From an uncultured bacterium (GTDB lineage: Bacteria > Patescibacteriota > Doudnabacteria > UBA920): 64,000 bases of DNA. The position numbers and the translations under genes were made by a program. Of the stretch, positions 8,205 through 62,939 are shown piece after piece (the stretch's first letter is position 1; the number at the start of each line of letters is the position of its first letter). The notes beneath the pieces are model-generated. The model was given only the letters and a program-made list of their open reading frames with translations, was not told the DNA's origin and made no database searches. The stretch is taken from positions 715-64,714 of the forward strand of contig CAVVMJ010000003.1 in NCBI GenBank assembly GCA_963749445.1, read 5' to 3'.

Positions 8205-8275
8205 TCAATGTCAATTTAAAATTACGGATTACGCATTACGGATTAATTCGTAATCCGCAATAAAAAAATTGTAAC

Positions 8276-11188: not shown

Positions 11189-11302
11189 GTCATTCCCGCG
11201 AAGGCGAGAATCATTTAATTTGTCATTGCGAGTGCAGCCGAAGCAATCTTTTTATAGATTGCCGCGTCGGCCAGATAAAGCCCTGGCCTCCTCGCAATGA
11301 CA
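11189..11302. repeat. palindromic MITE-like repeat, family A (1.5 copies)
   Basis: gtcattcccgcgaaggcgagaatca followed by gtcattgcgagtgcagccgaagcaatc...gattgccgcgtcggcc...ggcctcctcgcaatgac. Near-identical copies at 11667-11753 and inverted at 55877-55963, with a partial copy at 24715-24770. Confidence 0.8.
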
Positions 11303-11357
11303 CAAAAAAGTAGATTCAGCGTCCATTCAGCGTACCTATCAGCGACAAATCAGCGGC

Positions 11358-11651: not shown

Positions 11652-11666
11652 TTGTTCCTTTTTTCT

Positions 11667-11753
11667 GTCATTGCGAGTGCAGCCGAAGCAATCTTTATCT
11701 TAGGATGAGATTGCCGCGTCGGCCGGATAAAGCCCCGGCCTCCTCACAATGAC
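11667..11753. repeat. palindromic MITE-like repeat, family A
   Basis: Same sequence as 11223-11301, in direct orientation. Confidence 0.8.
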
Positions 11754-11758
11754 ACTTA

Positions 11759-12445
11759 TTATTCTAATTTTTTCTTGCTAATAACAACCTGTGAAGGCCG
11801 AATGACCTTACCATTTAATTCAAACCCGGTTTGGACTTCCTCTATAATAATCCCGTCGTCCTGGTCGCTTTCCGTTTCGCGGATGGCTTCGTGGAAGTTT
11901 GGGTCGAATTTTTTGCCGATGGCTTCTATTTTCCTGACGCCCAGTTCCCCAAGCGCTTTGTCCAGCTGCATAACTATACCGTCTACGCCCATTTGCCAGT
12001 TGGCGTATTTTTTCCTGAATTCCTCTGCTCTAACCCCCTCCCCGCCCTGCGGGCGGTACTCCCCCTCAGCAAGGGGGAGAGGCTCCGCACTTATCTCTGC
12101 ATTTTCCGCGGAGCTCCCCTCCTTTTCAAGGAGGGGTGTCCCGCCTTGGCGGGACGGGGTGGTTGGAGTATATTCAGGCAGATGTTTAAGCGCCTGCTCC
12201 AGCGAATCAATCGTGGGCAACAATTTTACCACCGTAACTTCCTTGGCAAATTCCAAAAGTTCCCTGTTTTCCGCTTCCTTGCGGCGCTTATAGTTTTCAA
12301 AATCCGCGGCCGCGCGCTTCCAGCCGTTCATGGCCGAATCCAAATCGGTTTGGAGTTTTTCCAAAGTTATGTTGCCGTTTTGACTGTCATCGGCCGGCTG
12401 ATGGTTATCGGTTTGCTGGTTTTCTTCTGACATAATTGGAAACAA
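11759..12445 (-). CDS. grpE: nucleotide exchange factor GrpE (with an internal GC-rich palindromic insertion)
   Basis: GrpE N-terminal helix WKRAAADFENYKRRKEAE and C-terminal domain. A ~145-bp GC-rich multi-hairpin insertion at 12030-12175 stays in frame (PSRQGGTPLLEKEGSSAENAEISAEPLPLAEGEYRPQGGEG). Confidence 0.85.
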   Translation of the reverse strand: MFPIMSEENQQTDNHQPADDSQNGNITLEKLQTDLDSAMNGWKRAAADFENYKRRKEAENRELLEFAKEVTVVKLLPTIDSLEQALKHLPEYTPTTPSRQGGTPLLEKEGSSAENAEISAEPLPLAEGEYRPQGGEGVRAEEFRKKYANWQMGVDGIVMQLDKALGELGVRKIEAIGKKFDPNFHEAIRETESDQDDGIIIEEVQTGFELNGKVIRPSQVVISKKKLE

Positions 12446-16294: not shown

Positions 16295-18559
16295 ATGAAA
16301 CCTTCTAAAAACGTCCGCGTAGTTGTCGTAATTTTATCACTCGCGATGACAGTTGCCCTGGCTAGTATGCCGCCAAAAACCAACGCAGCCCAAGCGTGCG
16401 CCACAACACTTTATCCCGGGGACAGCATCCAGGCGGCCGTGGACTGTAACACAGCCGGCACGACTTTTACCTTGACTCCCGGGGTCTACCGCGGACAGTC
16501 CGTCGCGCCAAAAAATAACGACGTGTTTGTGGGCCAGCCCGGCGCGATTTTAAACGGCTCCAAACTCTTAACTAATTTTACCCAACAAAACGGCATGTGG
16601 CTGGCCACGGGCCAAAGCCGGGTCGATCAGCCTCACGGAGATTGCGATGCCACCCATCCGGGCTGCAACTATCCCGAAGACTTATATTTTGACAGCATCC
16701 CCCTGCAACATATGGCCAACTTAAGCGACGTAGCTGCCGGCAAATGGTATTTTGATTACGCGGCGGGAATAGTTTATTTGGGCAATAACCCGGCCGGACA
16801 CACGGTTGAGCTCGGCGCCACAAAGACGGCCTTTGGCGGCGCGGCCACGGGCGTGACCATCCGCAATTTAATAATTGAAAAATACGCCAACAACGCCCAA
16901 ATAGGCGCCGTGGGCGGCGATAAGTGGGGTTCGGACAAGCCGTTCAACTGGACTTTGCAAAACAACGAAATCCGCCTGAACCACGGCGCCGGCATCAGCC
17001 TCTTGGACGGGGCGGAAGTAAACGGCAACTATATTCACGACAACGGCGAAATAGGCTACTCGCTCCAGGGAAAAAATATTGTTTTTGAAAACAACAATCT
17101 GGCCTATAACAACTACGCCGGATTTGATTGCGGCTGGGAATGCGGCGGGGGCAAGGCGGCGTTTACCAATAATCTGACTTTCCGCAATAATTATTCCCAC
17201 GACAATTTCGGACCCGGCTTTTGGACCGACACCGACAATGTTAATACCACGTACAGCGGCAATGTCATAGCCAACAACCAACTGGAAGGCATTGAGTACG
17301 AAATCAGCTTTTCGGGTAAAATTACCAACAACACTTTTTTGAACAACGGAAGCGGCCGGTCGTATGGCGTGCCGTGGGGCACGCAAATCATGCTTTATAA
17401 TTCCCAGAATGTGGAAATTTCGGGCAATACGCTGGTGGTGTCGCCGAGCTTGGGCAACGGCATAGGTTTAATGGATACCCCGCGCGGCTCCTCCGCCACT
17501 TTAGGCGCTTATTTGCTTGCTAACAACAGTATTCACGATAACGACATGACTTACCAAGGATCTTCAGGAATGACAGGAGTCCAAAAAACCGACAGCAACT
17601 TTACCGTCAGCGGGACTATTGATCCCACAAATGTGTTTTATAACAACCATTATCACGCTTCGGACATAACCGCCAACCATTTTTATTGGAACGGCGCCAT
17701 GTCCTTTAGCGCTTTCCAGCAAAAGGGGCAGGAAACCCACGGCACTATGGATACAACCATTTCCGCGCACCCGTTGGTCATTCCCACCGGAGTCAGCAAT
17801 AACCCCACAGCCGCGGGCGCTGTTGCCGCGGTTCCCGTTGCGCCCCGCGCCGGCCAGCTGATTAACATTAACGGAACGGTCTACCTTGTTGCCAACACCG
17901 GCCTCTATGGTTTTCCCGATGCCGCGACTTTTTATTCCTGGGGGTATAAGTTTACCGATATTGTTACGGCCAACAGCGCGGAAACGGCTTTAAGTATGAT
18001 CGGATTAGTGCCAACCGAACAAGCCGGATGCTCCAGTCCGCTGAATCAGATTAACGGCAGTTGCGGCCAGGCCGGTTCAACCACCACGCCCAGAGTCGGG
18101 CAATTAGTCAACATAGGCAATACTGTCTATCTTGTTGCCAACACCGGCCTGTACGGCTTTCCCGATGCCCCGACATTTTATTCCTGGGGATTTAGCTTTA
18201 GCCAGATAGTGCCTGCCAACAGCGCGGAATCGGCTTTAACCATGATCGGATTAGTGCCAACGGAACAATCCGGATGTTCCAGCCCGATAAATCAAATAAA
18301 CGGCACCTGCGCTGTTTCTCAGGTCACCGCTAGGCCCGGCCAAATAATAAGCATCAACAAAACCGTTTACCTGGTTTCCAGCACCGGCCTGTACGGCTTT
18401 CCCGATGCCGCAACATTTTACTCCTGGGGCTTTACCTTTGACAATATTGTCGCTGCCAACAGCGCCGAATCCGCTTTGCCAATGATAGGGATAGTCCCAA
18501 CCAAACAAGCCGCCTGCACCCACCCCCTTGACCAAATCAGCGGCTCCTGCGGTTCTTGA
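16295..18559 (+). CDS. secreted right-handed beta-helix (pectin-lyase-fold) repeat protein with a 3x C-terminal ~80-aa repeat
   Basis: Signal peptide; many NNxxxxN beta-helix repeats; three tandem C-terminal repeats (G-Q-L-I/V-N-I-x-x-T-V-Y-L-V...GLYGFPDA.TFYSWG) at ~17830-18540. Confidence 0.55.
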   Translation: MKPSKNVRVVVVILSLAMTVALASMPPKTNAAQACATTLYPGDSIQAAVDCNTAGTTFTLTPGVYRGQSVAPKNNDVFVGQPGAILNGSKLLTNFTQQNGMWLATGQSRVDQPHGDCDATHPGCNYPEDLYFDSIPLQHMANLSDVAAGKWYFDYAAGIVYLGNNPAGHTVELGATKTAFGGAATGVTIRNLIIEKYANNAQIGAVGGDKWGSDKPFNWTLQNNEIRLNHGAGISLLDGAEVNGNYIHDNGEIGYSLQGKNIVFENNNLAYNNYAGFDCGWECGGGKAAFTNNLTFRNNYSHDNFGPGFWTDTDNVNTTYSGNVIANNQLEGIEYEISFSGKITNNTFLNNGSGRSYGVPWGTQIMLYNSQNVEISGNTLVVSPSLGNGIGLMDTPRGSSATLGAYLLANNSIHDNDMTYQGSSGMTGVQKTDSNFTVSGTIDPTNVFYNNHYHASDITANHFYWNGAMSFSAFQQKGQETHGTMDTTISAHPLVIPTGVSNNPTAAGAVAAVPVAPRAGQLININGTVYLVANTGLYGFPDAATFYSWGYKFTDIVTANSAETALSMIGLVPTEQAGCSSPLNQINGSCGQAGSTTTPRVGQLVNIGNTVYLVANTGLYGFPDAPTFYSWGFSFSQIVPANSAESALTMIGLVPTEQSGCSSPINQINGTCAVSQVTARPGQIISINKTVYLVSSTGLYGFPDAATFYSWGFTFDNIVAANSAESALPMIGIVPTKQAACTHPLDQISGSCGS

Positions 18560-24643: not shown

Positions 24644-24889
24644 ATTAAAGGCTGGTTGATGAAAGTATTTTAGCAGATGATAAAGCGGGAATCAAGGGCG
24701 ATAATCATCGGTAAGGGATTGCCGCGTCGCCCCTCGGATGCACTCAGGGCTCCTCGCAATGACGAACGAAATTTGGCAGGCCAATCCACCTCCGCTAAGG
24801 CTACGGCGGACAAGGTGGCCTGTACTGCATCGGGCGGATGGTATCCGCCCCTACATCCGCGCAATCTGCGACATCCGCGTATCCGCAAA

Positions 24890-27795
24890 CTACAATACCT
24901 TTTTCAAATACTGCCCCGTAAAACTCGCTTTGACTTTGACAATGTCTTCGGGCGTGCCCGCGGCCACGAGCTCGCCGCCCTTGTCCCCGCCTTCGGGGCC
25001 AAGGTCTATGACCCAGTCCGCGGTTTTGATAATGTCCAAATTGTGCTCAATCACCACCACGGTGTTGCCCTTTTCCACCAGCTTGTTTAAAACCAAAATC
25101 AATCTTTTAATGTCGGCAAAATGCAGGCCCGTGGTCGGCTCATCCAGCAAATACAAAGTCCGGCCCGTGGCCGCGCGCGAAAGTTCGGTCGCCAGTTTAA
25201 TCCTTTGCGCTTCCCCGCCGCTCAAAGTGGTGGCGTTCTGGCCCAAACACATATAGCCCAAGCCCACCTGGGACAGGGTTTCCAGTTTTTTGTGGATTTG
25301 CGGCAAATTGGCAAAAAACACTTTGGCGTCATCTACTGTCATTTCCAAGACGTCGGAAATATTTTTTTCCTTGTAATGGATTTCCAAAGCCTGTTGGTTG
25401 TAGCGCTTGCCGTGGCACTCGTCGCAGGTAATGTACACATCCGGCAAAAAATTCATTTCCACCTGGATGACGCCGTCGCCCGCGCATTTTTCGCACCGCC
25501 CGCCGCGCACGTTAAAACTGAACCGGCCGGCCCGGTAACCGCGCATCCGCGCCTCGCGCGTGTCGGAAAACAAATCGCGGATCGGCGTAAACAAACCCGT
25601 GTACGTGGCCGGATTGGAACGCGGCGTGCGGCCGATTGGCGATTGGTCAATATTTATAATTTTATCCAAATGTTCCAGCCCCAGAATTTTTTTGTGCTTG
25701 CCCGGCTCTTCCTTGCTGTTAAAAAAATAGTGGTTCAGCGCTTTGGCCAAAATTTCGTTGAGCAAAGTGGATTTGCCGCTGCCGGACACGCCGGTGACGC
25801 AAACAAATTTGCCCAGCGGAATATCCGCGTTAATATTTTTAAGGTTAAATTCCTCGGCTCCCACAATGCTGAGTTTTCTGCCGTTACCCGGGCGGCGCCG
25901 CTTGGGCACTTCTATAAATTCCTTGCCTGCCAAATACTGGCCGGTTAAACTTTTGGCGCTTTTTTGGATTTGCGGCCGGCGTGCCTTGGGCCACCAGTTC
26001 CCCGCCGTGCTTACCCGCGCCCGGCCCAATGTCCACCACCCAGTCCGCCTCGCGGATGGTTTCCTCGTCGTGCTCCACTACGATTACAGTATTACCCAAG
26101 TCGCGCAAATCTTTTAAAGTTTGCAGCAACCGACGGTTGTCGCGCTGATGCAGGCCAATGGAAGGTTCATCCAATATATAGAGCACACCGGTGAGCCCGC
26201 TGCCGATTTGCGTGGCCAGGCGGATGCGCTGCGCTTCCCCGCCGCACAAAGTATCGGCCGTTCGGTCTAAAGACAAATAAGCCAGCCCCACATTCAGCAA
26301 GAACGAAAGCCGCGCATTAATTTCCTTTAAAATCTGTTTGGATATAGTTTGGTCTTTAACGCTTAAGACTTTGGGCAAATTTTTAAAAAATTCCGCGGTT
26401 TGGTCTATGGACAGGTGGGAAACATCCACTATCCCCTCACCGCCCACGGTTACGACCAAAACTTCGGGCTTGAGGCGTTTGCCCAAACAAACCTCGCACT
26501 GGCGGACGCGCATATAATTTTCGATTTCGCTGCGCATAAATTCGGAATCGGTTTCGCTGTAGCGGCGCTGCAAGTTGGGAATGACGCCCTCAAAAGCGGT
26601 ATTCATTTCAAACTGGCCGTCGCGGGTGGAAAATTCGCCGGCCACTTTGACTTTTTTCCCGCCCGTGCCGTACAAAACCACGTCAATAATTTTTTTGGGG
26701 AGATCCTTAACCGGCGTGTTCACGGAAAATCCGTATTCTTTGGCCACGGCTTCTAAAATTCGCGAGTACCAAGACAGGCGCGAAGTGGTTTTGCTCCACG
26801 GGCGGACGGCGCCTTCGGCCAGGGTTAATTTTTGGTTGGGCATAACCAAGTCCGGCTCCACCGTGAGCTTGGTGCCCAGGCCCTTGCACTCCGGGCAGGC
26901 GCCGTGCGGGCTGTTAAAACTAAAATCGCGCGGGTCCAGCTCGTTAAGCGACATATGCCCGTCAGGACAGGCAAAATTTTGGGAGAGGGTGATTTCTTGT
27001 CCCCCTGTAGCGGCATGCCTCGGCATGCCGTCTTGTTTAGGCACGCCACGGCGTGCCTCTACATCAGATGATACCATTTTAATGGCAATCGCCATCCCAT
27101 CGCCCAAATCCAAAGCCTTTTCCAAACTCTCGGCCAACCGCGCCCGGTCTTTTTGGGAAATGATAATTCTGTCCACCACCACGTCTATGGAATGTTTTTT
27201 TTGCTTGTCCAAATTTAGCCCCTGGGCCTCGTTCAAATCCATAACCGTACCGTCCACGCGGACGCGGGCAAAACCTGCTTTTTTGATTTGTTCAAAAATA
27301 TGCTTGTGCTCGCCTTTTTGGTCGCGCACAAACGGCGCCAGGAGCATCAAGCCGGTGCCTTCGGGCAAACTCGAGCAGCTGCTCCACCATGGCCTGCGGG
27401 GTCTGGCCGGAAATTTTTTTACCGCAAACCGGGCAGTGCGGAATGCCGATGCGAGCGTACAATAATCTTAAATAGTCATAAATTTCCGTGACCGTGCCCA
27501 CGGTTGAGCGCGGATTGTGGCTGGCGGATTTTTGGTCAATGGATATTGCCGGGCTCAAACCCTCTATTTTATCCACATCAGGTTTATCCATAAGGCCGAT
27601 GAACTGGCGCGCGTAGGCGGAAAGCGATTCCACATAGCGGCGCTGGCCTTCGGCGTAAATGGTGTCAAACGCCAAAGACGACTTGCCACTGCCCGACAAG
27701 CCGGTTAACACCACTAGCTTGTTGCGCGGCAAATCCACGTCCAAATTTTTTAAATTGTGCATCCGCGCCCCGCGGATGCTTATAATGTCCTTCAT
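24890..27795 (-). CDS. uvrA: excinuclease ABC subunit A (UvrA), broken into three ORFs by two apparent homopolymer frameshifts (~27367 and ~25965), with an in-frame repeat insertion
   Basis: Three consecutive overlapping ORFs carry UvrA N-terminus ([34 protein letters not shown]), middle (Zn-finger, ABC signature) and second ABC domain ([10 protein letters not shown]...[12 protein letters not shown]). The element at 27004-27066 encodes [20 protein letters not shown]. Confidence 0.85.
27004..27066. repeat. palindromic repeat family C inserted in frame in uvrA
   Basis: ggcacgccgtggcgtgcc and ggcatgcc(c)cggcatgcc hairpins. The same element sits in frame in uvrC at 30079-30141. Confidence 0.8.
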
Positions 27796-29166
27796 ACGGC
27801 GCTGATATTACGCTGATTAGTACGCTGATATGTCGCTGAAACGATGAAGAATAAGTTCAGCGTTTGTTCAGCGTACCTATCACCCCTCGGCAATGTTCGG
27901 GGTGACCCTGAGCATTGCCGAATGGGTCAGCGTCCATTCAGCGGATAAAGTAAAAACAGGCTAGTAGCAATTTTACCACGGATGTCAAGAGAATGCAAGA
28001 GCCTAGCCGCGGATCTGCACGCAGATCCGTAGGGGCGGGTTTGTAACCCGCCCTGATTCGGGCTGATAAAAAACCAAAATTTTTGCCTTATATAAAAGCC
28101 AATTTTACATATGTTTGTCAAAATTATATTTTACTTTAAATAAAGCAGATTTAGTTGGACAAAACAAAGACCCGCGCTAGTCCCGAAACAACGTTCGGGG
28201 GCGAGGGTCAGCGAAACAGTCTCAATACGAAGGAGACCACGTCGTAAAAGCCTAAAAAGGCCAAGAACAACAATATGGGGATCACAGCGGGAGACTTTTC
28301 GATGAAGTCCAAAAATTTTGCCCGCCAGCCGCTAATACGAATCACTCCTGGGACCACGGCTCCTCCTTCCTGGACACTACAATCTTCGCTACCGGCTTAA
28401 CCAGCCATAATAGCGAGACACAATGTCCAGTATGGCGACCGCCCCGAGCCCAAGACAGAGGTAGCGCCGGTCTTGGGCTGAGAATCACCTCTTCCGGGAA
28501 TAGTAATACCGCTGATATTTCGGCATTCTTCACCTCCCCCACCAGGTGCAGTAAAGCACCCAACAAACCGTGCCGATCGTAGCCAGCGAAGACCAGAACT
28601 CAGCGGGCGATGACAGGGAAAACCGCTGACCAGCGGCGTAGTCCCTAGTGGCAATGACGCACAACCAGGAGAGACTGGCACCAGCCGCCGCAATCGCCAA
28701 CCAAAACTGTAGTAAGGTCGGCCGGCTGCGCCGGCTTAAAACAAACTGGCCGAGACAAAAGCGGTATACCCGCAATGTGGGCTTGACAAAAACCCGGTGA
28801 GCGAACTCCGCCAGGGCCAGAAAGGTCAGAAACCCCAAATCGGAAAGTTCCTCCAGGGTTCCTGGATCATCAGACGGATCGATGCTGATGAACCTGTTGC
28901 TGACCGGGATATCCCCTTCCCGGCTGCGCCGACTCAAACCGATGGGACTGTTGCCGGATAGAGCATATGGCCACCATCCGGCCTTCCCATGCAATGGGTC
29001 GACGCGCCCGCAAGGGGGCACACGAGAGCTTGTAACCATTAATTAATTCCTCCTTCCGTTGCCCCTAACCGCAGGGCTGTGGAATAAATATATTTTCTGC
29101 GCCTAAAAGATTTTTGTCAACCACATCTCGACACCAAACCGCCTGACGGATATAATTACTTATGAA

Positions 29167-31131
29167 ATGACCCAAATCCAAAATCTCTCCACCAGCGGCG
29201 GATCCGCCTTCGGCGGAAAATCCAAAATCTCAAATATCCCAAAACAGCCCGGCGTTTACCAGTTTTTGGATAAAGACGGCGGGGTTATTTATATTGGCAA
29301 GGCCAAAAATTTGCGCTCGCGCGTGGGGCAATATTTTAACGGCAGCGATGAGCGGCCCCAAATCCCCCACCTGATGAATGAGGCGGCGGATTTTAGTTAT
29401 ACCGTTGTCAATAACGAACTGGAAAGTTTGTATTTGGAAAACACTTTGATAAAACAGTATCTGCCGAAATATAACATTTTACTGCGCGACGACAAAAACT
29501 ACGCGTTCATTAAAATAGATTACTCAACCGAGATACCGCAGATTGGCTACGCAAGAAAAATAGAAAATCCGGGACTTAGCCCTAAACCCTTAGCCCTTAG
29601 CCCTAAATACTTTGGTCCCTACACCGCCGCCTACAAAATCCGCGACACACTTCATTTAATGCGCAAAATTTTTCCCTACTGCTCGGCGACAAAAGTTTCG
29701 GGAAAACCGTGTTTCCACTATCACCTGCACCGCTGCCCGGGCGTGTGCATTGGGAAAATCACGCTTGACGAGTACCGGCTGACCTTAAAAAAAATTGAGG
29801 ATTTTTTGGCCGGCAATACGGCAAAAGTCGGCAAACAGCTGCAAAGCGAAATGCGCACTGCCGCCTCCAAAAAACAGTTTGAAAAAGCCGCCCGTTTGCG
29901 CGACCAACTGAATTCGCTAAAGCTTTTACAGGAACGCCAAACCGTAATTTTAGCCAAAAAAGTGGACTGGGATATTGTGTCTTTGGCGGCTTCCGATGGT
30001 TATGCCTGCGTTAACCTGTTTAAAGTGCGCGAAGGCAAATTGCAGGACAAAGAAGATTTTGTGTACGAGATGGGCTCCGATGTAGAGGCACGCCGTGGCG
30101 TGCCTGAACAAAATGACGGCATGCCCCGGCATGCCGCTACAGAATATACATTAACATTACAAACCTTCCTTGAACAGTACTATTCGGAAGCTTCCAGCGT
30201 TCCTAAAATTATTTATACCCAATATCAGGTCCGGGAATATCGGCTCATAGAAAAACTGATCCGCTCGCGTTATGACCGCGCAGTCAAAATCATCACGCCC
30301 CAAAAAGGCAAAGCCAAAGGGTTAATCAAGCTCGGAACAGCCAACGCGCAGGAATACCTGACGAAATGGCTTTCAGATCAAGCCGGGCATTTGGACAAAA
30401 TCAACCGCGCGCTGGAAGGCCTTAAAAACGCGCTTTGTCTGGAAAAAATCCCCGAGCGGATAGAGTGTTACGACATCAGCAATATCCAGGGCACCAACGC
30501 CGTGGGCAGCATGGTGGTGTTTAAAAACGGCCTGCCGGCCAAATCCGAATACCGAAAATTTCGGATAAAAACCAAGCACACGCCTGACGATTTTGCGATG
30601 ATGCGCGAGATATTGCAAAGAAGATTTAGGCACAATTACGAATTACGCATTACGGATTCTGAAAATTCGCAATCCGCAATCCGCAATCCGCAATCTTACA
30701 ATTGGCCTCTCCCCGACCTCATTGTCATCGACGGCGGAAAAGGACAACTCTCCGCGGCGCTAGGAGCGCTGCGGAAATTTCCAATTTCCAATTTCCAATT
30801 TCCAATTATTGGCTTGGCCAAAAGGATTGAAGAAATCTTCGTTCCGGGCAAATCCGAACCCATTATTTTGCCGCACGACGATCCCGCACTCCAACTCCTC
30901 CAGCGCCTGCGCGACGAGACGCACCGTTTTGGAATTATTTTTCATCGCCAGCTCCGCTCCAAGCAGGCCGTCCGGTCAGCGCTTGATAACATCCCAGGGT
31001 TAGGCCCCAAAACCAAAAAACTGCTCAAAGCCAAATTCGGCACCGTAGCCAGCATCCGGAAAGCCGATTTAAATGATCTTGCCTCGGTTGTTGGGGATAA
31101 AATAGCGCGGAATATAAAATCAAATGTATGA
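29167..31131 (+). CDS. uvrC: excinuclease ABC subunit C (UvrC), carrying in-frame repeat insertions
   Basis: GIY-YIG N-terminus GVYQFLDKDGGVIYIGKAKNLRSRV, UvrBC domain, endonuclease V-like and HhH C-terminus. Contains repeat C (30079-30141, [21 protein letters not shown]), ATCCG-type repeats (30640-30700) and a (TTTCCAA)4 microsatellite (30778-30807). Confidence 0.93.
   Translation: MTQIQNLSTSGGSAFGGKSKISNIPKQPGVYQFLDKDGGVIYIGKAKNLRSRVGQYFNGSDERPQIPHLMNEAADFSYTVVNNELESLYLENTLIKQYLPKYNILLRDDKNYAFIKIDYSTEIPQIGYARKIENPGLSPKPLALSPKYFGPYTAAYKIRDTLHLMRKIFPYCSATKVSGKPCFHYHLHRCPGVCIGKITLDEYRLTLKKIEDFLAGNTAKVGKQLQSEMRTAASKKQFEKAARLRDQLNSLKLLQERQTVILAKKVDWDIVSLAASDGYACVNLFKVREGKLQDKEDFVYEMGSDVEARRGVPEQNDGMPRHAATEYTLTLQTFLEQYYSEASSVPKIIYTQYQVREYRLIEKLIRSRYDRAVKIITPQKGKAKGLIKLGTANAQEYLTKWLSDQAGHLDKINRALEGLKNALCLEKIPERIECYDISNIQGTNAVGSMVVFKNGLPAKSEYRKFRIKTKHTPDDFAMMREILQRRFRHNYELRITDSENSQSAIRNPQSYNWPLPDLIVIDGGKGQLSAALGALRKFPISNFQFPIIGLAKRIEEIFVPGKSEPIILPHDDPALQLLQRLRDETHRFGIIFHRQLRSKQAVRSALDNIPGLGPKTKKLLKAKFGTVASIRKADLNDLASVVGDKIARNIKSNV
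30079..30141. repeat. palindromic repeat family C inserted in frame in uvrC
   Basis: Reverse complement of 27004-27066. Because uvrA and uvrC are on opposite strands, both genes translate it to the same peptide. Confidence 0.8.
30778..30807 (+). repeat. (TTTCCAA)x4 microsatellite inside uvrC (encodes ISNFQFPI)
   Basis: Direct 7-bp tandem repeat; note it is not a multiple of 3 per unit. Confidence 0.85.
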
Positions 31132-33233: not shown

Positions 33234-33395
33234 AAGCCGCGGATCTACTCGCGGATGGCGACGCGGATCACACGCGGAGTGTAGGGGCGGATAGTATCCG
33301 CCCGCGATGGATTGATGTTTGGGTGACAAAATGATAAAATGATTTATGGTTTGCCCAGGTGGCGGAACTTGGTATATTTACCCCGCACAGTTGGG

Positions 33396-33482
33396 GCCGC
33401 GGTGGTGGAATTGGCATACACGTACGTTTCAGGTACGTATGGGAGCAATCCCGTGAGGGTTCAAGTCCCTCCCGCGGCACCA
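33396..33482 (+). tRNA. tRNA-Leu(CAG), class II with long variable arm
   Basis: Acceptor GCCGCGG/CCGCGGC, anticodon stem TACGT/ACGTA with loop TTCAGGT (anticodon CAG), variable arm GGGAGCAATCCC, T arm GAGGG-TTCAAGT-CCCTC, encoded CCA. Confidence 0.7.
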
Positions 33483-33558
33483 CTTGTGCGGGGCACGCAC
33501 GTTTCAGGTACGTGTGGGAGCAATCCCGTGGAGGTTCGAGTCCTCTCCTGTACACCAA
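33483..33558 (+). other. partial tRNA-Leu-like duplicate (anticodon arm to CCA; no matching 5' acceptor or D arm)
   Basis: gcacgcacgtttcaggtacgtgtgggagcaatcccgtggaggttcgagtcctctcctgtacacca parallels the 3' two-thirds of the preceding tRNA at ~85% identity. Confidence 0.4.
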
Positions 33559-38731: not shown

Positions 38732-40727
38732 GCACCGCGACTTTCTTTTTCCCGCTTAACTTATAAATATTTTCGGCTTCCGTGCTCACCACTTTTGTCT
38801 TTCTGCCGTTGCCGCGCAGTTCCTGATAAAGAGATTTAAAAGTATGCCCGTCGTAATCCCAATCCACCGCCCAATAGTCTATAAGCACAGCAAAATTATT
38901 TTTTATCAACAACATAAGTTCAGTGCGCGACTCGTCCGCCTTTTTACCGCTGCCCAAAGGAAAATCTTCTACAATATAATTTTCTATTTTAATTTTCAGT
39001 TTTAACCCTTCAATTTCCGGTTTGGCAATTTTTAAATATGGCTTATTGAAAAACACCACTTTACCAACAAGCGGCTCCAAGTCGTCCTCGGTTTTTGCCT
39101 GTTTTAGATACTCGTAAATATCCGGCGGAATTTGTTTTGGGATAATTTCCAATTTAGTTTTTGCCGCTTTTTTTCTTTCGTTCAACAGTTCATCAAAATT
39201 GTATTCGTAATCCCAGCCCAAAAGAGTCAAATTCGCGAAACCTCCGCCCTGTAAATTTTCCGCTTCCTTGGCCAATTCTTCCGCCTTATGCGCCGCAATC
39301 GGCCTGTCCGGATAGCCGCAATACACCAATTCCATTTTGCCGTCCTCGGATTTTTTTACGCCCAAATCCTTGCGGTTTTCCATAATTTCCGCGCCGTAAA
39401 GCTTTAACACGATTTTTTGCATCTCATAAATCCGCCCTCCTCCCAAATAAATCATCTCCCTCTGATAATTCCCAATATTCTCCACCAAAAACGGTTTTGA
39501 TTTTTGTTCCACCAGTCTGCCACGCGCGACTTGAATACCAACTTTCCCTAGCTCACATCCAATCCATCGACGGTTTAAATTTTCAGCTACTGATATCGTT
39601 GTTCCTGAACCCAAGAAAAAATCTGCAACGATTCCATTTTCAGGGCACGACGCTTCAATTATTCTTTGCAAAAGTTTTTTTGGTTTCTGAGTTTGATATT
39701 CTATATATTCGGGCATTGCTGGATAAACTTGCGTAATCCTTGCCTCATCACTATCTATCCACGACCATACATCATCCATCTTTCTTCCTTCGTCAGCATA
39801 ATAACGATTTGCGTTATTGTTGCCGCTCATTCGATATTTCCTACCCTCTTCATCTGTAAACGGATAAATGGATAAGTCCTTAACCGGAACACGCACAGGG
39901 TTAAAATATCTGTTATCTCCTTTTGAATAACGAAAAATCATGTTGTGTTTTCGAGCAAAGTCTTTTTCAGGAGCGGTCCCAGCTTGAAAATGCCAAATTA
40001 TCTGATTCCTAAAATTTTCCTCTCCAAAAACCTCATCCATCATCACTTTTACATAATGCCCAACGTGCCAGTCCAAATGCGCGTAAATACTGCCATCTTC
40101 GGCCAAAAGGCGTTTCATTAGTTGCAAACGCGGGTAAAGCATATCCAAATAGCTGTCTGTGCCGCCAGCCCAGGTGTCTTTGTAGGCCAAGCGTTCTATT
40201 ACGCTCGGCTCTTTTACCAATTCCAAATCCGCCGATGTTTCAGAAACATCAGCCAGTTTGATTTTGTGCGAATAGTCCGCCTTGCTGTCAAACGGCGGAT
40301 CAATGTAAATTAAATTTATTTTGCCTTCGTACCCCTGGTTTAACAGTGCCTGCATTGCCAATAAATTGTCGCCCCAAATTAGGCGGTTCATTTTTTGCTT
40401 GTCCAATTCTTCTTCCCCGATTTTGCCGTCTGTAAAAGACAAAGGCAACTGGCCTCTGTGCTCGGGATTTGGCACCACCACTTCCGCGGTCTGGAATTCA
40501 ATATCCTTGGGGTTAGGCGCGCGCTTGGGTTTGGTATCCCAAACCAGCCGGGCCGAATCCCTTTTCCTGTTAGTATTCATTTGTTGTAGCTGAGGATTTA
40601 GTGCAGCTGGAAAACAAAAAGGGCCTCCCAACCGCGAGCAACACCTTTCGATGTTACTGCGTGCTTGCGCACGCACCTCAGCTACGAGTGCGGTTAAGAG
40701 ACCGTCCTTATGTAGCTGAGGTTTCAA
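38676..40727 (-). CDS. mod: type III R-M Mod subunit (adenine-specific DNA methyltransferase)
   Basis: INLIYIDPPFDSKADY (motif IV) and C-terminal FFLGSGTTISVAENLNRRWIGCEL (motif I). Overlaps res by 56 nt. Confidence 0.85.
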   Translation of the reverse strand: MKPQLHKDGLLTALVAEVRAQARSNIERCCSRLGGPFCFPAALNPQLQQMNTNRKRDSARLVWDTKPKRAPNPKDIEFQTAEVVVPNPEHRGQLPLSFTDGKIGEEELDKQKMNRLIWGDNLLAMQALLNQGYEGKINLIYIDPPFDSKADYSHKIKLADVSETSADLELVKEPSVIERLAYKDTWAGGTDSYLDMLYPRLQLMKRLLAEDGSIYAHLDWHVGHYVKVMMDEVFGEENFRNQIIWHFQAGTAPEKDFARKHNMIFRYSKGDNRYFNPVRVPVKDLSIYPFTDEEGRKYRMSGNNNANRYYADEGRKMDDVWSWIDSDEARITQVYPAMPEYIEYQTQKPKKLLQRIIEASCPENGIVADFFLGSGTTISVAENLNRRWIGCELGKVGIQVARGRLVEQKSKPFLVENIGNYQREMIYLGGGRIYEMQKIVLKLYGAEIMENRKDLGVKKSEDGKMELVYCGYPDRPIAAHKAEELAKEAENLQGGGFANLTLLGWDYEYNFDELLNERKKAAKTKLEIIPKQIPPDIYEYLKQAKTEDDLEPLVGKVVFFNKPYLKIAKPEIEGLKLKIKIENYIVEDFPLGSGKKADESRTELMLLIKNNFAVLIDYWAVDWDYDGHTFKSLYQELRGNGRKTKVVSTEAENIYKLSGKKKVAVRVVDIFGNDATKILEVEI

Positions 40728-40894
40728 CCATGTCCCGCCGAAGGCGGGGTTTAGGCTTTACCCGGGGTTTTACGCCCGGGGCAATATTCTCCGCCGGAGG
40801 CGGATCCGCCTTTGGTGGAAATTGTATTTTAATTATACTACAATTAAGCCAAAAATAAAACCGCCGGTTTTAAGCAAATTTTTTGCTTGCGCAG

Positions 40895-44230: not shown

Positions 44231-44382
44231 CTTCGGCAACACATCGCCAACGCGCGGCGGACGACCACCCATCGTCCGCCGTGCATCATTTTTAAAACGC
44301 CCAAACAGGGCGTTTAATATTGTTTGATGTCTTTATGAAATTATTTTGGGAGGGTTATAAACCCTCCCCTACATTACAATAA

Positions 44383-47327: not shown

Positions 47328-47448
47328 TTCTCGACTCCAACGGGTATCGCGTCTGCGTCAAGCTCAACTCGGATGGGCTCAACGTCAACAACGATCATCC
47401 GTCCTACGGCGACAACGACAACTTGTACGTCTGCGTTGCCCGGAAGTC
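47328..47448 (+). repeat. DGR template repeat (TR)
   Basis: 121 bp matching VR at 48950-49070 (minus strand). All 16 mismatches are A in the TR. Confidence 0.85.
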
Positions 47449-47461
47449 TCATCGTTTTTTA

Positions 47462-47495
47462 AATCAGACCTACCTTTTAAAAGGTAGGTCTGATT
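47462..47495. terminator. perfect 13-bp-stem hairpin (aatcagacctacc-ttttaaaa-ggtaggtctgatt)
   Basis: Lies between the TR and the 3' end of avd. Could be a bidirectional terminator or a DGR RNA structural element. Confidence 0.5.
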
Positions 47496-47847
47496 GTTGC
47501 AGCACCTGAACTGATTTTTTCCAGCCGCCTAACATCCGGCCTATTTCATCCACCGAATCCTGAAAGAAAATATACTTTTTATTATCCATGGCCTTAATGT
47601 CTTTAGCCAGACGCATATAAATCCGCAAAATATTAAGTTTGCCGCTGGCTTTGTCCAAATATGGTAGCTTTTCCGCCTTGGGTAAGCCGGTTGCGGTAAG
47701 CAGATACTCCAAAATTTCCGTTAAAACTGTTTCGCTTTTTTGGCCTAAAGAATATCTGTCCTGCTTTGGGAAAGTTTTTAAACAAATATAAAACTCCTTG
47801 TATAAATCATACGACTTTTTAAAAATTGGAACATCAAATTCATTCAT
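47470..47847 (-). CDS. avd: DGR accessory variability determinant (Avd, four-helix-bundle/IVS-like)
   Basis: FPKQDRYSLGQKSE and DEIGRMLGGWKKS parallel bAvd PRKHGVAREMF and EVGRILGSWIARV. 125 aa, strongly basic C-terminal half. Confidence 0.75.
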   Translation of the reverse strand: MNEFDVPIFKKSYDLYKEFYICLKTFPKQDRYSLGQKSETVLTEILEYLLTATGLPKAEKLPYLDKASGKLNILRIYMRLAKDIKAMDNKKYIFFQDSVDEIGRMLGGWKKSVQVLQQSDLPFKR

Positions 47848-48843
47848 ATGAAAATCTATAAAGATGTTTTTAGCAAAATAGCTAGTGCGGAAAACCTGTT
47901 TGACTCATGGCAGGCATTCCGCAAGGGAAAGACTAAGCGCAGCGACGTAATGGCTTTTGAATTTTCATTGGAGCAAAATATTTTTGATTTGCGCGATGAA
48001 TTAAAATCAAAAAGATACAAACATGCGCCCTATTCTTCCTTTTTTATTCAAGATCCCAAACAAAGGAACATTCATAAAGCCAGTGTCCGCGACCGGCTTA
48101 TCCACCATGCCATTTTCGCCGTTCTGAACCCCATTTTTGAAGCGGCCTTTATTCCCAATTCCTTTTCCTGTCAAAAGGGCAAAGGCACGCATAAGGGAGT
48201 GGAGGCGCTTAAAAATATATTGCGCGAAGCCAGCAAAAATAACACCAAACCATGCTTTGTGCTTAAATGTGATATTAGACAGTTTTTTCATTCGGTTGAC
48301 CATGATATTTTGATTTCAATTATTGGGCAAAAGATCAAAGACCTTGATGCCATGCGGCTAATCCGAGAGATTGTGGAGAGCTTCCCTAATGGCGTGCCGA
48401 TAGGCAATTTGACCAGCCAACTGTTTGCCAATCTTTATTTAAATGAGCTCGACAGGTTTGTTAAGCACAAACTGAAAGTTCCTTTTTATGTTCGCTATAC
48501 CGATGATTTTGTTCTGGTTTCAGATTCGCCTGAAAAACTTCTATCCTTGCTGGAATGGATAAAGCTGTTTTTGCGGGAGCGGCTCAAGCTTGAGATCCAC
48601 CCGCACAAACTAACTTTACGAAAATACCATCAGGGGATTGATTTTCTTGGTTATATTCAGTTTCCCAAATTTAGGATTTTGAGGAACAAAACTAAGCAAA
48701 GAATTTTAAGGAAATCGGCCAAGGGCTTAAACGAGCAGTCCTTGCAATCGTATTTAGGGGTTCTGTCTCATTGTAATGCCTACAAGCTTGGCGAGAGTTT
48801 AAAGAACGAGTTTTGGCTGCAAAGTGAGGAGGGGAAAAAGTAA
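47848..48843 (+). CDS. DGR reverse transcriptase
   Basis: RT motifs 1-7 with YTDDFVLV (motif 5) and the DGR-diagnostic IGNLTSQLFANLYL (motif 4). 331 aa, RT domain only. Confidence 0.9.
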   Translation: MKIYKDVFSKIASAENLFDSWQAFRKGKTKRSDVMAFEFSLEQNIFDLRDELKSKRYKHAPYSSFFIQDPKQRNIHKASVRDRLIHHAIFAVLNPIFEAAFIPNSFSCQKGKGTHKGVEALKNILREASKNNTKPCFVLKCDIRQFFHSVDHDILISIIGQKIKDLDAMRLIREIVESFPNGVPIGNLTSQLFANLYLNELDRFVKHKLKVPFYVRYTDDFVLVSDSPEKLLSLLEWIKLFLRERLKLEIHPHKLTLRKYHQGIDFLGYIQFPKFRILRNKTKQRILRKSAKGLNEQSLQSYLGVLSHCNAYKLGESLKNEFWLQSEEGKK

Positions 48844-48924
48844 AAAAAATTTCGGGAAGGCTTCGCCAGAGGCGAAGCCTTGCTTTCAAGGCCTCAAAGC
48901 CTAAAGCTTCAGAGTTCCGAAGCT

Positions 48925-49779
48925 TCAAGCGATCAAAGCACGATGGGCGGACTTCCGGGCAACGCAGACGAACAAGTTGCCGCTGCCGCCGTAGGACGGA
49001 TGAGCGCCGTAGACGAAGAGCCCAGCCGAGTCGAGCCAGACGCAGACGCGATACCCGTGGGAGTCGAGAATGCGGCCCCAGTGATAGACGTTGTCGAACA
49101 GCCGCTGACCGGTGGCCTTCTGGTGAGCGAGCACCGCCTGGGAGAACACGCGCTCGTCGGCGCGTTCGTAGTCTTCGCCCAATGCCACGATGTTGTCTTC
49201 CTGCTGTTGCCAGTTGGTGCGATTCCACCGCGGGGTCATGTCGAGCAGGTAGTAGCCGGCCTCCGGCTTGCTGTCGCCGACTTCCTTGTACTGCGGCTTC
49301 AGGAACCAGTCGACGCCCGGGTAATAGTTGGGCGGGTGGCTCTTGTCGGTACCGAGCGTGGAGTGCTGGCTGCGGAACGACGCTGTCGAAGCATAAGCCA
49401 GCATCCATTTGTGCGTCCCGGCCTTGTTCTGGTAGGCACACTCCTGAATCTGGGCCATGTTCGGGCAAACCACGGTCTGTCCCTTGGGGGACGGTTGGGC
49501 GAAGGTGGTCGAGTTCTGCTCGTGCGTCACCAGACTGGTCTGGCCGAGCAGGGTGAGCGCACCAGCGAGGTCGAATGCCGGAGTCGTCAGCCGGATTGCG
49601 AGCCGGTGAACGAATTGCTGATACTCTTCCGGATAGACTCCGCTGCTATGGATTGCCAAAAGTTCGGCGTGAAGGAAACTTCCCTTCTCCAGTGCGGCTT
49701 CGGTTGCGTTGCGCATGTCTCGGATTTGACCCGGGGTTGCCGGATCGTTGCTCTTAGACGTGAGTAATGGGGTTCCCAT
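48925..49779 (-). CDS. DGR target protein (FGE-sulfatase/C-type-lectin-like fold) with C-terminal variable repeat
   Basis: C-terminus ...LDSHGYRVCVWLDSAGLFVYGAHPSYGGSGNLFVCVARKS corresponds to TR-encoded ...LDSNGYRVCVKLNSDGLNVNNDHPSYGDNDNLYVCVARKS, with TR AAC/AAT codons diversified. GC-rich relative to its neighbours. Confidence 0.85.
   Translation of the reverse strand: MGTPLLTSKSNDPATPGQIRDMRNATEAALEKGSFLHAELLAIHSSGVYPEEYQQFVHRLAIRLTTPAFDLAGALTLLGQTSLVTHEQNSTTFAQPSPKGQTVVCPNMAQIQECAYQNKAGTHKWMLAYASTASFRSQHSTLGTDKSHPPNYYPGVDWFLKPQYKEVGDSKPEAGYYLLDMTPRWNRTNWQQQEDNIVALGEDYERADERVFSQAVLAHQKATGQRLFDNVYHWGRILDSHGYRVCVWLDSAGLFVYGAHPSYGGSGNLFVCVARKSAHRALIA
48950..49070 (-). repeat. DGR variable repeat (VR)
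   Basis: See TR. The shared ggaagtc at the 3' end is the candidate IMH boundary. Confidence 0.85.
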
Positions 49780-55079: not shown

Positions 55080-55871
55080 ATGGCGAATTTAAAAATCTCA
55101 AAATTTACAGTCCTGTTGGTTATCGCGGCGATAATTTTTGCGGCAGTTGCTTTGCGTTACATTAACAGCAGAATGCCGCAGGTGATAAATTACAATGATC
55201 AAGCGGGCAGCTCGGCTACCACAACCCCAAACGGCAGCGCGGCTTCGGAGCCGCAAACTAAACCGGCCCCCGCGCCCGCCTCTTCAAGCACGCAGCCAAG
55301 TTCGCTGAATTTGCCAATCCCCTTTACCTCCCAGGCGCCAACCGGCAACTGGGACACAGTCCACAATGAAGACTGCGAGGAAGCCGGCGCGGTTATGGCC
55401 AATGCTTATTTAACCGGCAACACCGCGGTGGTTCTTCCGGCCGCGCAGGTGGAAACCGAAATGACCGCCTTAAACAATTGGGAAGACAGCCATTTTGGCT
55501 ACCATCTGGACACTACCGCTGCTGAAACCGCGCAAATGATTACAGGCTATTACGGGCTTAAGGCAACAGTTCAGGACGGTTACACTCTTTCGGATATTAA
55601 AGATCAAATCAATTTGCATCACGTTGTTATTTTGCCGGTTAACGGCCGTCTTATTGGCAACCCCAACTACACGCAGCCCGGGCCGATTTACCATATGCTG
55701 GTTATCCGCGGATATACAATGGCAGGATTGATTACCGACGACTCCGGCACCAGGCGCGGGCAGAACTATCCATACACTTTTGAAATTTTACACAACGCGG
55801 GCGCGGACTGGAACCATTCTACTAATACAATAGATCAGACAAAAAAAGTGATGATTGTGGTTTCCAAATAA
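55080..55871 (+). CDS. membrane-anchored C39-like (papain-fold) peptidase-domain protein
   Basis: TM anchor, Ser/Pro-rich linker, then NEDCEEAGAVMANAYL (Cys), YHMLVIRGY (His) and ITDDSGT (Asp) in C39-like order. Confidence 0.5.
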   Translation: MANLKISKFTVLLVIAAIIFAAVALRYINSRMPQVINYNDQAGSSATTTPNGSAASEPQTKPAPAPASSSTQPSSLNLPIPFTSQAPTGNWDTVHNEDCEEAGAVMANAYLTGNTAVVLPAAQVETEMTALNNWEDSHFGYHLDTTAAETAQMITGYYGLKATVQDGYTLSDIKDQINLHHVVILPVNGRLIGNPNYTQPGPIYHMLVIRGYTMAGLITDDSGTRRGQNYPYTFEILHNAGADWNHSTNTIDQTKKVMIVVSK

Positions 55872-55876
55872 TTTTT

Positions 55877-55963
55877 GTCATTGCGAGGAGGCCGGGGCTT
55901 TGTCCGGTCGACGCGGCAATCTTGTCATAAGATAAAGATTGCTTCGGCTGCACTCGCAATGAC
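55877..55963. repeat. palindromic MITE-like repeat, family A (inverted copy)
   Basis: Reverse complement of 11667-11753. Sits between two paralogous C39-like genes. Confidence 0.8.
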
Positions 55964-55971
55964 AAACTAAA

Positions 55972-62404: not shown

Positions 62405-62408
62405 ATGC

Positions 62409-62939
62409 TTAAATTATAATGATATTTACTTTAGAAAGGGGCGGGCGCAAGCGGAGCTTGCGCCTCCTGGTCATTTTGGTAGCCCGCCGCGCTGCCAATA
62501 CCACCATGGCCGGCGTGTCGGCAAGGTACCGACGGCAACAGGGATATTTTTCCCCTGAGCCGTAATTCCAAGGGTTTTGGTAAGGCCGATTGCAGTTCTG
62601 GAAAATTCGACCGATACCTCGGCCACCACCCCATCTCTGATGGTTTTCTCGTCGCTTCCCGGCCTTCCCGATCAGTAGGCACTTCGTGCCATCTGCGACA
62701 GGCGAACACAACAGTTCTTTGCCTGCGTCTTTGGCCGCCTGCCCGGCGGCCACGGAGACCAAAAAGTCTTTCTGATGGGTCAACGTCCACTGCATTTCTG
62801 CAATGCCATCAGCGAAATTGGCGGAATTGTAGCTGAACACCAAATTTGTGGTACCGACACCGGGACTCAGGGTCAGGGTAGCAACCTGGCCAAACTCTGG
62901 CGCAACGGCCAATAACAAAACGACGACCAAGGTTCTCAC
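62409..62939 (-). CDS. secreted cohesin-like domain protein (C-terminal half of the ORF looks like read-through or frameshifted)
   Basis: Signal peptide plus the N-terminal domain homologous to the neighbours. The Arg/Gly-rich distal part is not protein-like. Confidence 0.4.
   Translation of the reverse strand: MRTLVVVLLLAVAPEFGQVATLTLSPGVGTTNLVFSYNSANFADGIAEMQWTLTHQKDFLVSVAAGQAAKDAGKELLCSPVADGTKCLLIGKAGKRRENHQRWGGGRGIGRIFQNCNRPYQNPWNYGSGEKYPCCRRYLADTPAMVVLAARRATKMTRRRKLRLRPPLSKVNIIII

Follow-up and report, generated by a model that had tools for sequence, protein, structure and literature searches.

How does one and the same palindromic DNA come to lie in frame inside two neighbouring genes of nucleotide excision repair, and how can both proteins carry it? 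The question is raised by a stretch of 64 kb of contig CAVVMJ010000003.1 from an uncultured bacterium (the window, taken at its full length), in which uvrA and uvrC each contain a copy of a two-hairpin element first pointed out by a sequence-only reading. A homologue search with UvrC returned neighbours labelled Candidatus Doudnabacteria or Patescibacteria group. Our comparative analysis supports the insertion of one dispersed palindromic element in both uvrA and uvrC, where it is tolerated as an in-frame peptide. We consider it likely that the element is a head-to-head dimer of GTAG-tagged repetitive extragenic palindromic (REP) units, i.e., a REPIN-like non-autonomous mobile element.

Anatomy of the element

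The window holds two copies of the two-hairpin palindrome, one in uvrA (minus strand) and one in uvrC (plus strand), in the same orientation relative to either gene, as the sequence-only reading had described; the coordinates that it gave (27004-27066 and 30079-30141) are correct to within 1-3 nt. The palindromic core, GTAG...CTAC, occupies 27007-27062 in uvrA (56 nt, minus strand) and 30082-30140 in uvrC (59 nt, plus strand), within a wider common sequence GATGTAG...CTACAG at 27005-27065 (61 nt, minus) and 30079-30142 (64 nt, plus); the minus-strand reading of 27065-27005 is GATGTAGAGGCACGCCGTGGCGTGCCTAAACAAGACGGCATGCCGAGGCATGCCGCTACAG. In each unit the GTAG tag and one base are followed by a hairpin with a 2-nt loop and a perfect 8-bp stem of G+C, which the adjoining pair lengthens to 9 bp; the stem is either GGCACGCC/GGCGTGCC or the self-complementary GGCATGCC. 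In its single-stranded form the hairpin of the element family is GTAGAGGCACGCCGTGGCGTGCC. Two such units stand inverted across a spacer of 10 nt (uvrA) or 13 nt (uvrC) with their GTAG tags on the outside, an arrangement shared by 11 further copies. Unit A of the uvrA copy (27039-27062, minus) consists of GTAG, A, the stem GGCACGCC, the loop GT, the stem GGCGTGCC and T, forming a perfect 9-bp stem, and unit B, inverted relative to it (27007-27030, plus), reads GTAGCGGCATGCCTCGGCATGCCG; the units of the uvrC copy are GTAGAGGCACGCCGTGGCGTGCCT (unit A, 30082-30105, plus) and GTAGCGGCATGCCGGGGCATGCCG (unit B, 30117-30140, minus). The uvrC copy differs from the uvrA copy in the loop of hairpin 2 (CC versus GA), in one spacer base (A to G) and in three added spacer bases (AAT), and the stems of both copies, four in all, are the same.

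Each half-pattern has exactly two matches in the window as against none in 100 shuffles, and folding of the single-stranded DNA yielded about -21 kcal/mol per copy and strand (z = -4.9 to -5.8), a stability reached by none of 200 shuffles. GTAG-tagged perfect hairpins with a stem of at least 7 bp number eight in the window versus 0.1 expected, and four of them make up the two dimers. REPs of the GTAG class have been defined as palindromes of ~20-40 nt with a conserved GTAG at one end, a 6-13-bp stem and a 2-3-nt loop, which also form dimers with the GTAG outside (Di Nocera, De Gregorio and Rocco 2013, BMC Genomics 14:522, PMC3733652). The tags, stems and spacer described above therefore match the anatomy of published GTAG REP dimers as well as that of REPINs (PMC3337134).

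Host genes and reading frame

The uvrC gene (29167-31131, plus) is intact, encodes 654 residues and was identified by TIGR00194 with 542 bits, above the cut-off. The uvrA gene (24890-27795, minus) measures 2906 nt as assembled and is split into three open reading frames (ORFs; 27795-27292, 27368-25884 and 26029-24890), its identity resting on NF001503/TIGR00630 for the 494-residue middle fragment and on the Pfam domains UvrA_inter and UvrA_DNA-bind. The peptide DVEARRGVP(K/E)Q(N)DGMPRHAAT, which had been claimed for both genes, agrees with our translations: the in-frame uvrA core, together with the flanking GAT and AG, is read as 20 residues, and the in-frame uvrC core corresponds to 21 residues (UvrC 305-325). 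The copies are translated as a ~20-residue hydrophilic surface loop rich in Gly, Pro and Arg.

The accompanying claim of an unbroken frame holds for the element in both genes and requires correction for uvrA as a whole, whose assembled sequence is frameshifted at two other sites, near 27,37x (TTTGCCCGAAGG; 27,360-27,385) and 25,96x (CCGGCCGCAAATCC; 25,955-25,980), both far from the element. Since the uvrA fragments are free of stop codons and 77-91% identical to intact orthologues, the frameshifts, judged from the sequence, more likely represent assembly indels than a (very recent) pseudogene.

Three of the six frames of the element are open. The one in use is the sole open frame in that orientation, is cysteine-free and has a grand average of hydropathy of -1.2, versus -0.1 to +0.9 for the other frames, which contain cysteines. 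The common orientation in uvrA and uvrC is consequently less telling than it appears, and selection on essential genes suffices to explain the frame common to both.

A translated palindrome of this kind recalls the Rickettsia palindromic elements (RPEs), to which the element had been likened. The likeness stands for its behaviour as an in-frame palindrome sited in a loop and fails for its family, the anatomy being that of GTAG REPs and REPINs. At 56-59 nt the element is also far shorter than RPE-1, which runs to roughly 100-150 bp. RPEs do share the insertion in frame in housekeeping genes and the reading as a surface loop (PMC3733652). However, the host is Patescibacteria/Doudnabacteria-like by its UvrC neighbours and not a Rickettsia, and the tag is GTAG, as opposed to the CGTC class among which the intragenic RPE-4 and RPE-6 of R. 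conorii are counted (PMC3733652). Membership of the RPE families proper is extremely improbable.

Insertion into variable loops of UvrA and UvrC

Comparison with orthologues indicates an insertion and not ancestral sequence. UvrC orthologues range from 592 to 799 residues, and in an alignment of 120 of them the stretch from FVYE to LQ.FLEQYY, where the element lies, is hypervariable (~5 to >80 residues). The element is absent in 118 of the 119 UvrC orthologues of the window's protein. The exception (P0012, 67% identical, on a 3.3-kb Logan contig) carries two dimers in uvrC, one of which occupies the codon position of the window's copy and has the same left flank, ATGGGCTCC, and a like 59-nt core, the difference between the two being a compensated stem pair. 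The second dimer of P0012 lies in a second variable loop (RRF...WP.PDL) and is read in another frame, giving GSGTPRRA...GMPRHAST. The divergent uvrA-uvrC pair is syntenic in five relatives with intact UvrA proteins of 960-1008 residues, and none of these five contains the element. Between LG(D/N)G.... and I.LSQ(K/N)FACP, which bound the UvrA loop, their content is unrelated and of varying length: a short loop, ETDGKTSKHETD, in two relatives (L134 and L138), a hairpin CCCTCTCCC-AAA-GGGAGAGGG in L139, a long unrelated insert in L137 and direct repeats of the ACGCGGAA type in L135. Hence the residues in question are missing from the same positions in all five UvrA and 118 of 119 UvrC orthologues. 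The closest UvrA orthologue, L135 with the loop SRGNTATRNHAEN, was considered as a decayed copy of the element and rejected, its DNA being a different repeat, of the direct ACGCGGAA type just mentioned.

The same UvrC loop holds other palindrome-derived peptides in other orthologues (RRHSERSEESR...ILHPSDALGVQDDA, SPSLSLKKE...PLLSKEGLGE and DTNIRMHTNDTN). As a side observation, at least three other families of palindrome-derived peptides were noticed in the UvrA and UvrC loops of relatives (UvrC P0002-P0120; UvrA L137 and L139), namely HSERSEESR...ILHPSD...VQDDA, SPSLSLKKE...PLLSKEGLGE/PHPGPLPKGEGG, and DTNIRMHTNDTN.

When UvrA is aligned with the solved structure 9gxk, three residues of the chain (256-258) have 26 query residues in their place, so that relative to 9gxk ~23 extra residues lie between the UvrB-interaction domain and the next zinc module. 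The UvrA element begins six residues past the end of Pfam UvrA_inter (the UvrB-interaction domain), and the alignment with the crystal constructs of that domain, 3fpn and 4dfc, ends just before it. Among solved structures none covers the UvrC site, and UvrC was modelled with AlphaFold2 from an alignment of the 119 orthologues (mean predicted local distance difference test score, pLDDT, of 85.9). In the predicted model the element (305-325) forms a coil between a strand (291-301) and a helix (323-341) of the first RNase H-like domain (PF22920, 267-399), with pLDDT values of 63 and 58 for the 10-residue blocks of 301-320 as against 84-95 on either side. The loop location proposed by the sequence-only reading is borne out by this low-confidence loop between confident elements and by the variability of both sites among orthologues.

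UvrC of the window contains three palindromic inserts in total, and the weakly modelled regions 1-15 and 491-510 coincide with the two further ones; residues 105-110 (pLDDT <50) are linked to no insert. The two further in-frame repeats, which belong to other families, lie at 29186-29219 (STSGGSAFGGK, at the N-terminus) and 30633-30694 (HNYELRITDSENSQSAIRNPQ, residues ~490-510), the latter corresponding to a gap relative to solved C-terminal structures of UvrC. Further members of these families were seen at 7903 and 40788 and at 8220, 12444 and 51649, all except that at 7903 being outside any long ORF.

Copies elsewhere and signs of mobility

A metagenome scan for the dimer revealed 16 loci, and 13 distinct dimer copies were found across datasets, the search having demanded two perfect hairpins. 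The sub-family identical to that of the window (GTAGAGGCACGCC...GGCATGCCGCTAC) was found on contigs of 41-48% G+C. Host ORFs assigned by Pfam encode BipA/TypA, ATP synthase alpha/beta, LepA, CarB, AspRS and PurL, and in all of them the frame is VEARRGVP..(D)GMPRHAAT; in a further copy, within NAD-dependent DNA ligase (LigA), the first unit is read in a different frame and gives GSGTPRRAVDAKGMPRHAST. Further copies, which the sequence-only reading had proposed to look for as a sign of mobility, are thus present in frame in seven unrelated housekeeping genes elsewhere, in addition to extragenic ones. One of the seven metagenome-sample hosts is a repair gene. The range of the other hosts (GTPases, ATP synthase, CarB, AspRS, PurL) speaks for large proteins with permissive loops and not for targeting of repair genes.

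These copies bear on the view that the 20 residues are a selected protein sequence, either a functional module or the product of gene conversion between uvrA and uvrC, and not mobile DNA. In its favour, both copies of the window lie in nucleotide-excision-repair genes 3 kb apart and in the same frame, and REP inserts have been argued to cluster in repair genes and possibly to alter their activity (Di Nocera et al., PMC3733652). However, it is the palindrome in the DNA that is conserved: its stems are unchanged or changed in compensated pairs, and the variation in loops and spacer alters the residues. The same DNA also occurs in unrelated genes, in a second frame (LigA and the second site of P0012), outside genes and beside a transposase gene. 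Moreover, close orthologues lack the insert and, as noted, only one of the seven sampled hosts is a repair gene, all of which makes selection for the peptide very unlikely.

No flanking direct repeat longer than 1 nt was detected at any of the 13 copies, and accordingly no target-site duplication was seen. The base before the core is a T in 10 of the 13 copies and the base after it is an A in 8 of them, additions that simply lengthen the palindrome. This observation is relevant to the possibility of a conventional miniature inverted-repeat transposable element (MITE), i.e., the remnant of an insertion sequence with a DDE transposase, bounded by terminal inverted repeats, mobilised in trans and flanked by target-site duplications. 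DDE transposases of MITEs leave such duplications, and their absence argues against a DDE-type MITE and is what would be expected of a Y1 transposase. The inverted-repeat ends TGTAG...CTACA agree with a MITE, the flanking T and A superficially resemble a TA target, and a gene for an IS1595 DDE transposase adjoins uvrA in the relative L137. Nevertheless, the element consists of two self-contained GTAG hairpins and flanks a gene for a Y1 and not a DDE transposase. The model of a TA-target MITE was rejected on the missing duplication, and a conventional MITE of any kind appears highly improbable.

Across copies, loops and spacers vary freely and the stems remain paired: at the one stem position that varies, 54 of 56 hairpins have complementary bases (C-G or T-A), as compared with ~30 expected under independent variation. 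It is possible either that the hairpin is constrained, as a recognition site or cis-acting structure, or that C-G and T-A represent two sub-families, each propagating whole. The hairpins could then be kept chiefly as cis-acting DNA or mRNA structures (attenuation, mRNA stability, gyrase or integration host factor sites), their mobile origin being secondary. Such functions have been proposed for REPs generally (PMC3733652), and the compensated changes that maintain the pairing and a fold far more stable than shuffles on both strands are consistent with them. Stem conservation is, however, equally expected of a transposase recognition site or of two sub-families propagating whole, Rfam at gathering thresholds gave no match at the uvrA or the uvrC site, and a cis role is in any case compatible with the REPIN reading. 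As the main explanation, a cis-acting role seems unlikely to us.

A scan for single units with one genome per species returned at least 117 loci, and roughly 4-40 chance matches to the single-unit pattern are expected across the 596 Gb, depending on G+C content. The main form among the matches listed is a single 28-nt palindrome, GTAGGGGCACGCCATGGCGTGCCCCTAC, found in metagenome-assembled genomes labelled mostly Acidobacteriota/Terriglobia, and also Chloroflexota, Sumerlaeota, Chlorobiaceae, Gemmatimonadales, Patescibacteria and others. The window's own genome is not among the matches listed. Isolated single-unit matches in unusual phyla may be due to chance; extended palindromes and genomes with multiple matches are not. 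Viral contigs gave only five matches to the unit, and a protein search with 41-residue joined peptides matched only a 40-residue ORF (P0121) and did not recover UvrC itself. In an Acidobacteriota genome (L079, CAVQAP010000013.1), four 28-nt GTAG palindromes were observed within 8 kb together with an ORF resembling a REP-associated tyrosine transposase (RAYT), at least one palindrome lying in frame in an apparent helicase motif region (LTATPRHL-VGARHGVPLP-VEVEK), so that in-frame REP insertion occurs with the single-hairpin form in other phyla as well.

A transposase gene flanked by the element

The strongest link to a mobilising enzyme comes from contig Ga0182027_10005809 (L132/L145, 42-43% G+C), where a 174-residue Y1_Tnp protein (Pfam PF01797, 28.3 bits versus a cut-off of 23) is encoded between copies of the element. 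Its gene has a related dimer, GTAGCGGCACGCCGCGGCGTGCCG-ACTCAATATGAAAA-GGCACGCCGCGGCGTGCCG, ~45 nt before the start and a complete dimer of the type seen in the window 23 nt past the stop codon (27 nt counted from the last sense codon), and a REP unit stands in frame directly after the HUH motif. This locus is a putative REPtron. Homologues of the protein, several of them from Patescibacteria, carry the JGI name 'REP element-mobilizing transposase RayT'. The gene order recX - RAYT - ... - M48 peptidase - LemA is common to L145 and another assembly, whose RAYTs are 71% identical (P0123), which fits a single-copy, vertically inherited RAYT.

In five of the 8-kb loci around single units there are ORFs for Y1/HUH transposases (YDYS.PG.Y ... 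VVMPNH.HG) in which REP-like sequence follows the HUH motif directly and in frame, and loci of Acidobacteriota and Anaerolineales have homologous RAYTs beside the single-hairpin form. Among the RAYT-type Y1 transposases listed (P0122-P0241; L021, L044, L079, L115, L132), the majority were seen to have a short variable peptide right after the HUH motif, and these peptides (DGTPRRAATG, VETRHGASL, NAPRRVPTG, VGNAYMRSL and others) resemble a translated GTAG hairpin. By this resemblance, genes for RAYT-type transposases may each house their cognate repeat within a loop.

Proposed mechanism and points against it

The element would be copied in trans by a RAYT, i.e., a REP-associated transposase of the Y1/HUH type, which by analogy with IS200/IS605-type enzymes might recognise the folded hairpin and its GTAG tag on single-stranded DNA and cut and paste it without duplication of the target. 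In uvrA and uvrC, copies have landed in loops that are free to vary between closely related genomes. Among insertions in essential genes, purifying selection would keep only those that add a multiple of three bases, bring no stop codon and fall in a permissive loop. With such a filter, it would be understandable that both copies of the window use the single frame that is open and hydrophilic in that orientation. The peptide as such is probably dispensable, and we infer that its presence is neutral.

Several observations weigh against this explanation. To our knowledge, RAYT-driven transposition of REPINs has never been directly demonstrated, even in model organisms, and the mechanism is for this reason one that we infer. 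The sole NCBIfam match of the L132 protein, 'REP-associated tyrosine transposase', reached 66 bits, which is under the 80-bit cut-off. Neither a regular expression for the HUH motif nor a hidden Markov model built from four RAYT ORFs detected a RAYT in the 64-kb window, and none of the 120 RAYT homologues listed lies on the contig carrying the identical UvrC (P0001). Homologues of recX, the M48 peptidase and LemA, the neighbours of the RAYT in L145, were not found in the window either, which indicates that the syntenic RAYT site is not covered by it. In the window, an nhmmer profile of the 13 copies yielded only the two known sites. About 11 of the 13 dimer copies lie within long ORFs of Pfam-confirmed identity, unlike classical REPs, which are mostly extragenic, and the requirement for two perfect hairpins may bias the genic share of the sample. 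Core lengths across copies are 55, 56, 58, 59 and 62 nt, none a multiple of three, and every in-frame copy consequently needs bases gained or lost at its junctions. Finally, should the frameshifts of uvrA be real, the gene would be a pseudogene and the tolerance of UvrA for the insert would be moot.

Other features of the window

The four remaining GTAG-tagged hairpins are single units of other stem families, all extragenic. One of another family, GTAGGGGCGGATACCATCCGCCC (24832-24854, minus), lies 36 nt downstream of the uvrA stop codon; GTAGGGGCGGGTTTGTAACCCGCCC (28029-28053, plus) is found in the uvrA-uvrC intergenic region; GTAGGGGCGGATAGTATCCGCCC (33281-33303, plus) lies ~48 nt downstream of an ORF ending at 33233 and upstream of tRNA-Leu; and no open frame of at least 120 residues passes through the site of GTAGGGGAGGGTTTATAACCCTCCC (44348-44372, minus). 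Two of the four (24832-24854 and 33281-33303) are directly downstream of genes, the typical position of REPs. A longer, composite palindromic repeat (TTGTCATTGCGAG...GCAATCT plus AGATTGCCGCGTCGGCC...CTCGCAATGACA) is present in 3-4 mostly extragenic copies at 11213-11306, 11659-11763, 55867-55971 and 24747-24776, one of them directly downstream of uvrA.

A diversity-generating retroelement was recognized at 47328-49779. Its 121-nt repeat at 47328-47448 matches 48950-49070 in reverse complement; wherever the two copies differ (15 positions), the first has A and the second G, T or C, the signature of a template and a variable repeat. The repeats enclose a reverse transcriptase (47848-48843, Pfam RVT_1) as well as a four-helix-bundle protein resembling bAvd (47470-47847, minus); the variable repeat lies in the 3' end of an ORF (48925-49779, minus) without a Pfam match. 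Rfam LOOT RNA (RF03000) was matched at 40640-40757 (minus) with 57 bits versus a gathering score of 46, adjoining a copy of the TCCGCC...GGCGGA palindrome at 40788-40821. The 3' 50 nt of tRNA-Leu(CAG) (33396-33482) recur at 33494-33543 with 90% identity, a repeat that may have been left by an integration at the tRNA. Long diverged tandem repeats at 59637-62516 and 17841-18551, with periods of ~700 nt and ~240 nt and 60-85% identity, probably encode repeat domains of large proteins.

Novelty and significance

REP dimers in uvrA and other repair genes have already been reported (Di Nocera et al. 2013, PMC3733652), and the phenomenon is therefore of a known kind. Our literature search found no description of intragenic REP or REPIN insertion in Patescibacteria, of this stem family, or of single loops of UvrA and UvrC as common landing sites for unrelated palindromic families. 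The present case adds the candidate phyla radiation to the lineages in which elements of the REP/REPIN type occur, at times within genes, and is an independent example of REP dimers in genes of nucleotide excision repair. It also explains part of the length variation of conserved proteins, much of the difference among UvrC proteins being loops filled by palindromic repeats. In annotation, such inserts should not be taken for lineage-specific functional motifs.

A broader reading joins these observations, and we offer it as possible though rather doubtful. In Patescibacteria, several palindromic families, including the RAYT-linked GTAG dimer, might repeatedly enter and replace one another at a few permissive loops of essential proteins. 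One such loop would be situated in UvrA and at least two in UvrC, and the hairpin might be selected even within coding sequence, as the compensated changes would suggest. The near-identical GTAGGGGCACGCCATGGCGTGCC, among the matches listed in genomes labelled Acidobacteriota, Chloroflexota, Sumerlaeota, Chlorobiaceae, Gemmatimonadota, Patescibacteria and others, might reflect the horizontal spread of one REP-RAYT system across phyla or strong convergence. If this were true, differences in loop length in these reduced genomes would arise commonly, and still today, from mobile hairpins, and the spread or convergence of GTAGGGGCACGCCATGGCGTGCC would be awkward for the view of REPIN-RAYT systems as lineage-specific and vertically inherited.

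Comparison with known systems

Correia-type bacterial MITEs are short and non-autonomous, have inverted-repeat ends and are at times fused to coding sequence, and the element resembles them in these respects. MITEs have been described as 70-300 bp long, similar to degenerated insertion sequences and equipped with terminal inverted repeats of 15-30 bp (PMC3733652). In contrast to MITEs, the element is without target duplication in its 13 copies, and the enzyme linked to it is a Y1 transposase.

We know of no dedicated transposase of RPEs. With these repeats (Ogata et al. 2000, 2002; Claverie and Ogata 2003, via PMC3733652) the element shares in-frame insertion, translation, a location in surface loops and a reduced host genome. 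It differs in host lineage, in the tag (GTAG versus the CGTC of RPE-4 and RPE-6; PMC3733652) and in that its family flanks a RAYT gene.

Agreement with the GTAG dimers of Di Nocera et al. is closer and extends to the tag, stem, loop, intragenic dimers of 20-30 residues and hosts among the genes of the excinuclease ABC (PMC3733652). Intragenic REPs are documented there as a minority, and elements 'entirely located within ORFs' are listed; more than half of these are dimers or groups that encode 20-30 residues, their hosts include many replication and repair genes, and the pattern was judged unlikely to be fortuitous (PMC3733652). Hosts named there are uvrA of Opitutus terrae (both paralogues) and of Thioalkalivibrio, uvrB of Rickettsia conorii, DNA ligase and tRNA synthetases, the UvrA of Thioalkalivibrio carrying two dimers read as VGRASARHAAASTGTASRAEARP (PMC3733652). 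The stem GGCAYGCC and the Patescibacteria host are outside the 24 GTAG families and eight phyla given in the part of the survey cited here. Further differences are that most dimer copies in our sample are intragenic and that the UvrA and UvrC loops of relatives hold other, unrelated palindromic repeats.

Classical REPINs are extragenic and belong to Pseudomonas and enterobacteria, whereas the element described here measures 56-59 nt, is mostly intragenic and has no RAYT within the 64-kb window. Its single-hairpin relative GTAGGGGCACGCCATGGCGTGCC(CCTAC) is, among the matches listed, common to genomes labelled as many phyla, again unlike classical REPINs. The likeness to the REPIN-RAYT systems (Bertels and Rainey 2011, PMC3116915; PMC3337134) lies in two inverted REPs across a short spacer and, on contig L132/L145, in a linked, single-copy Y1/HUH transposase gene that is flanked by REPs and occupies a conserved chromosomal position.

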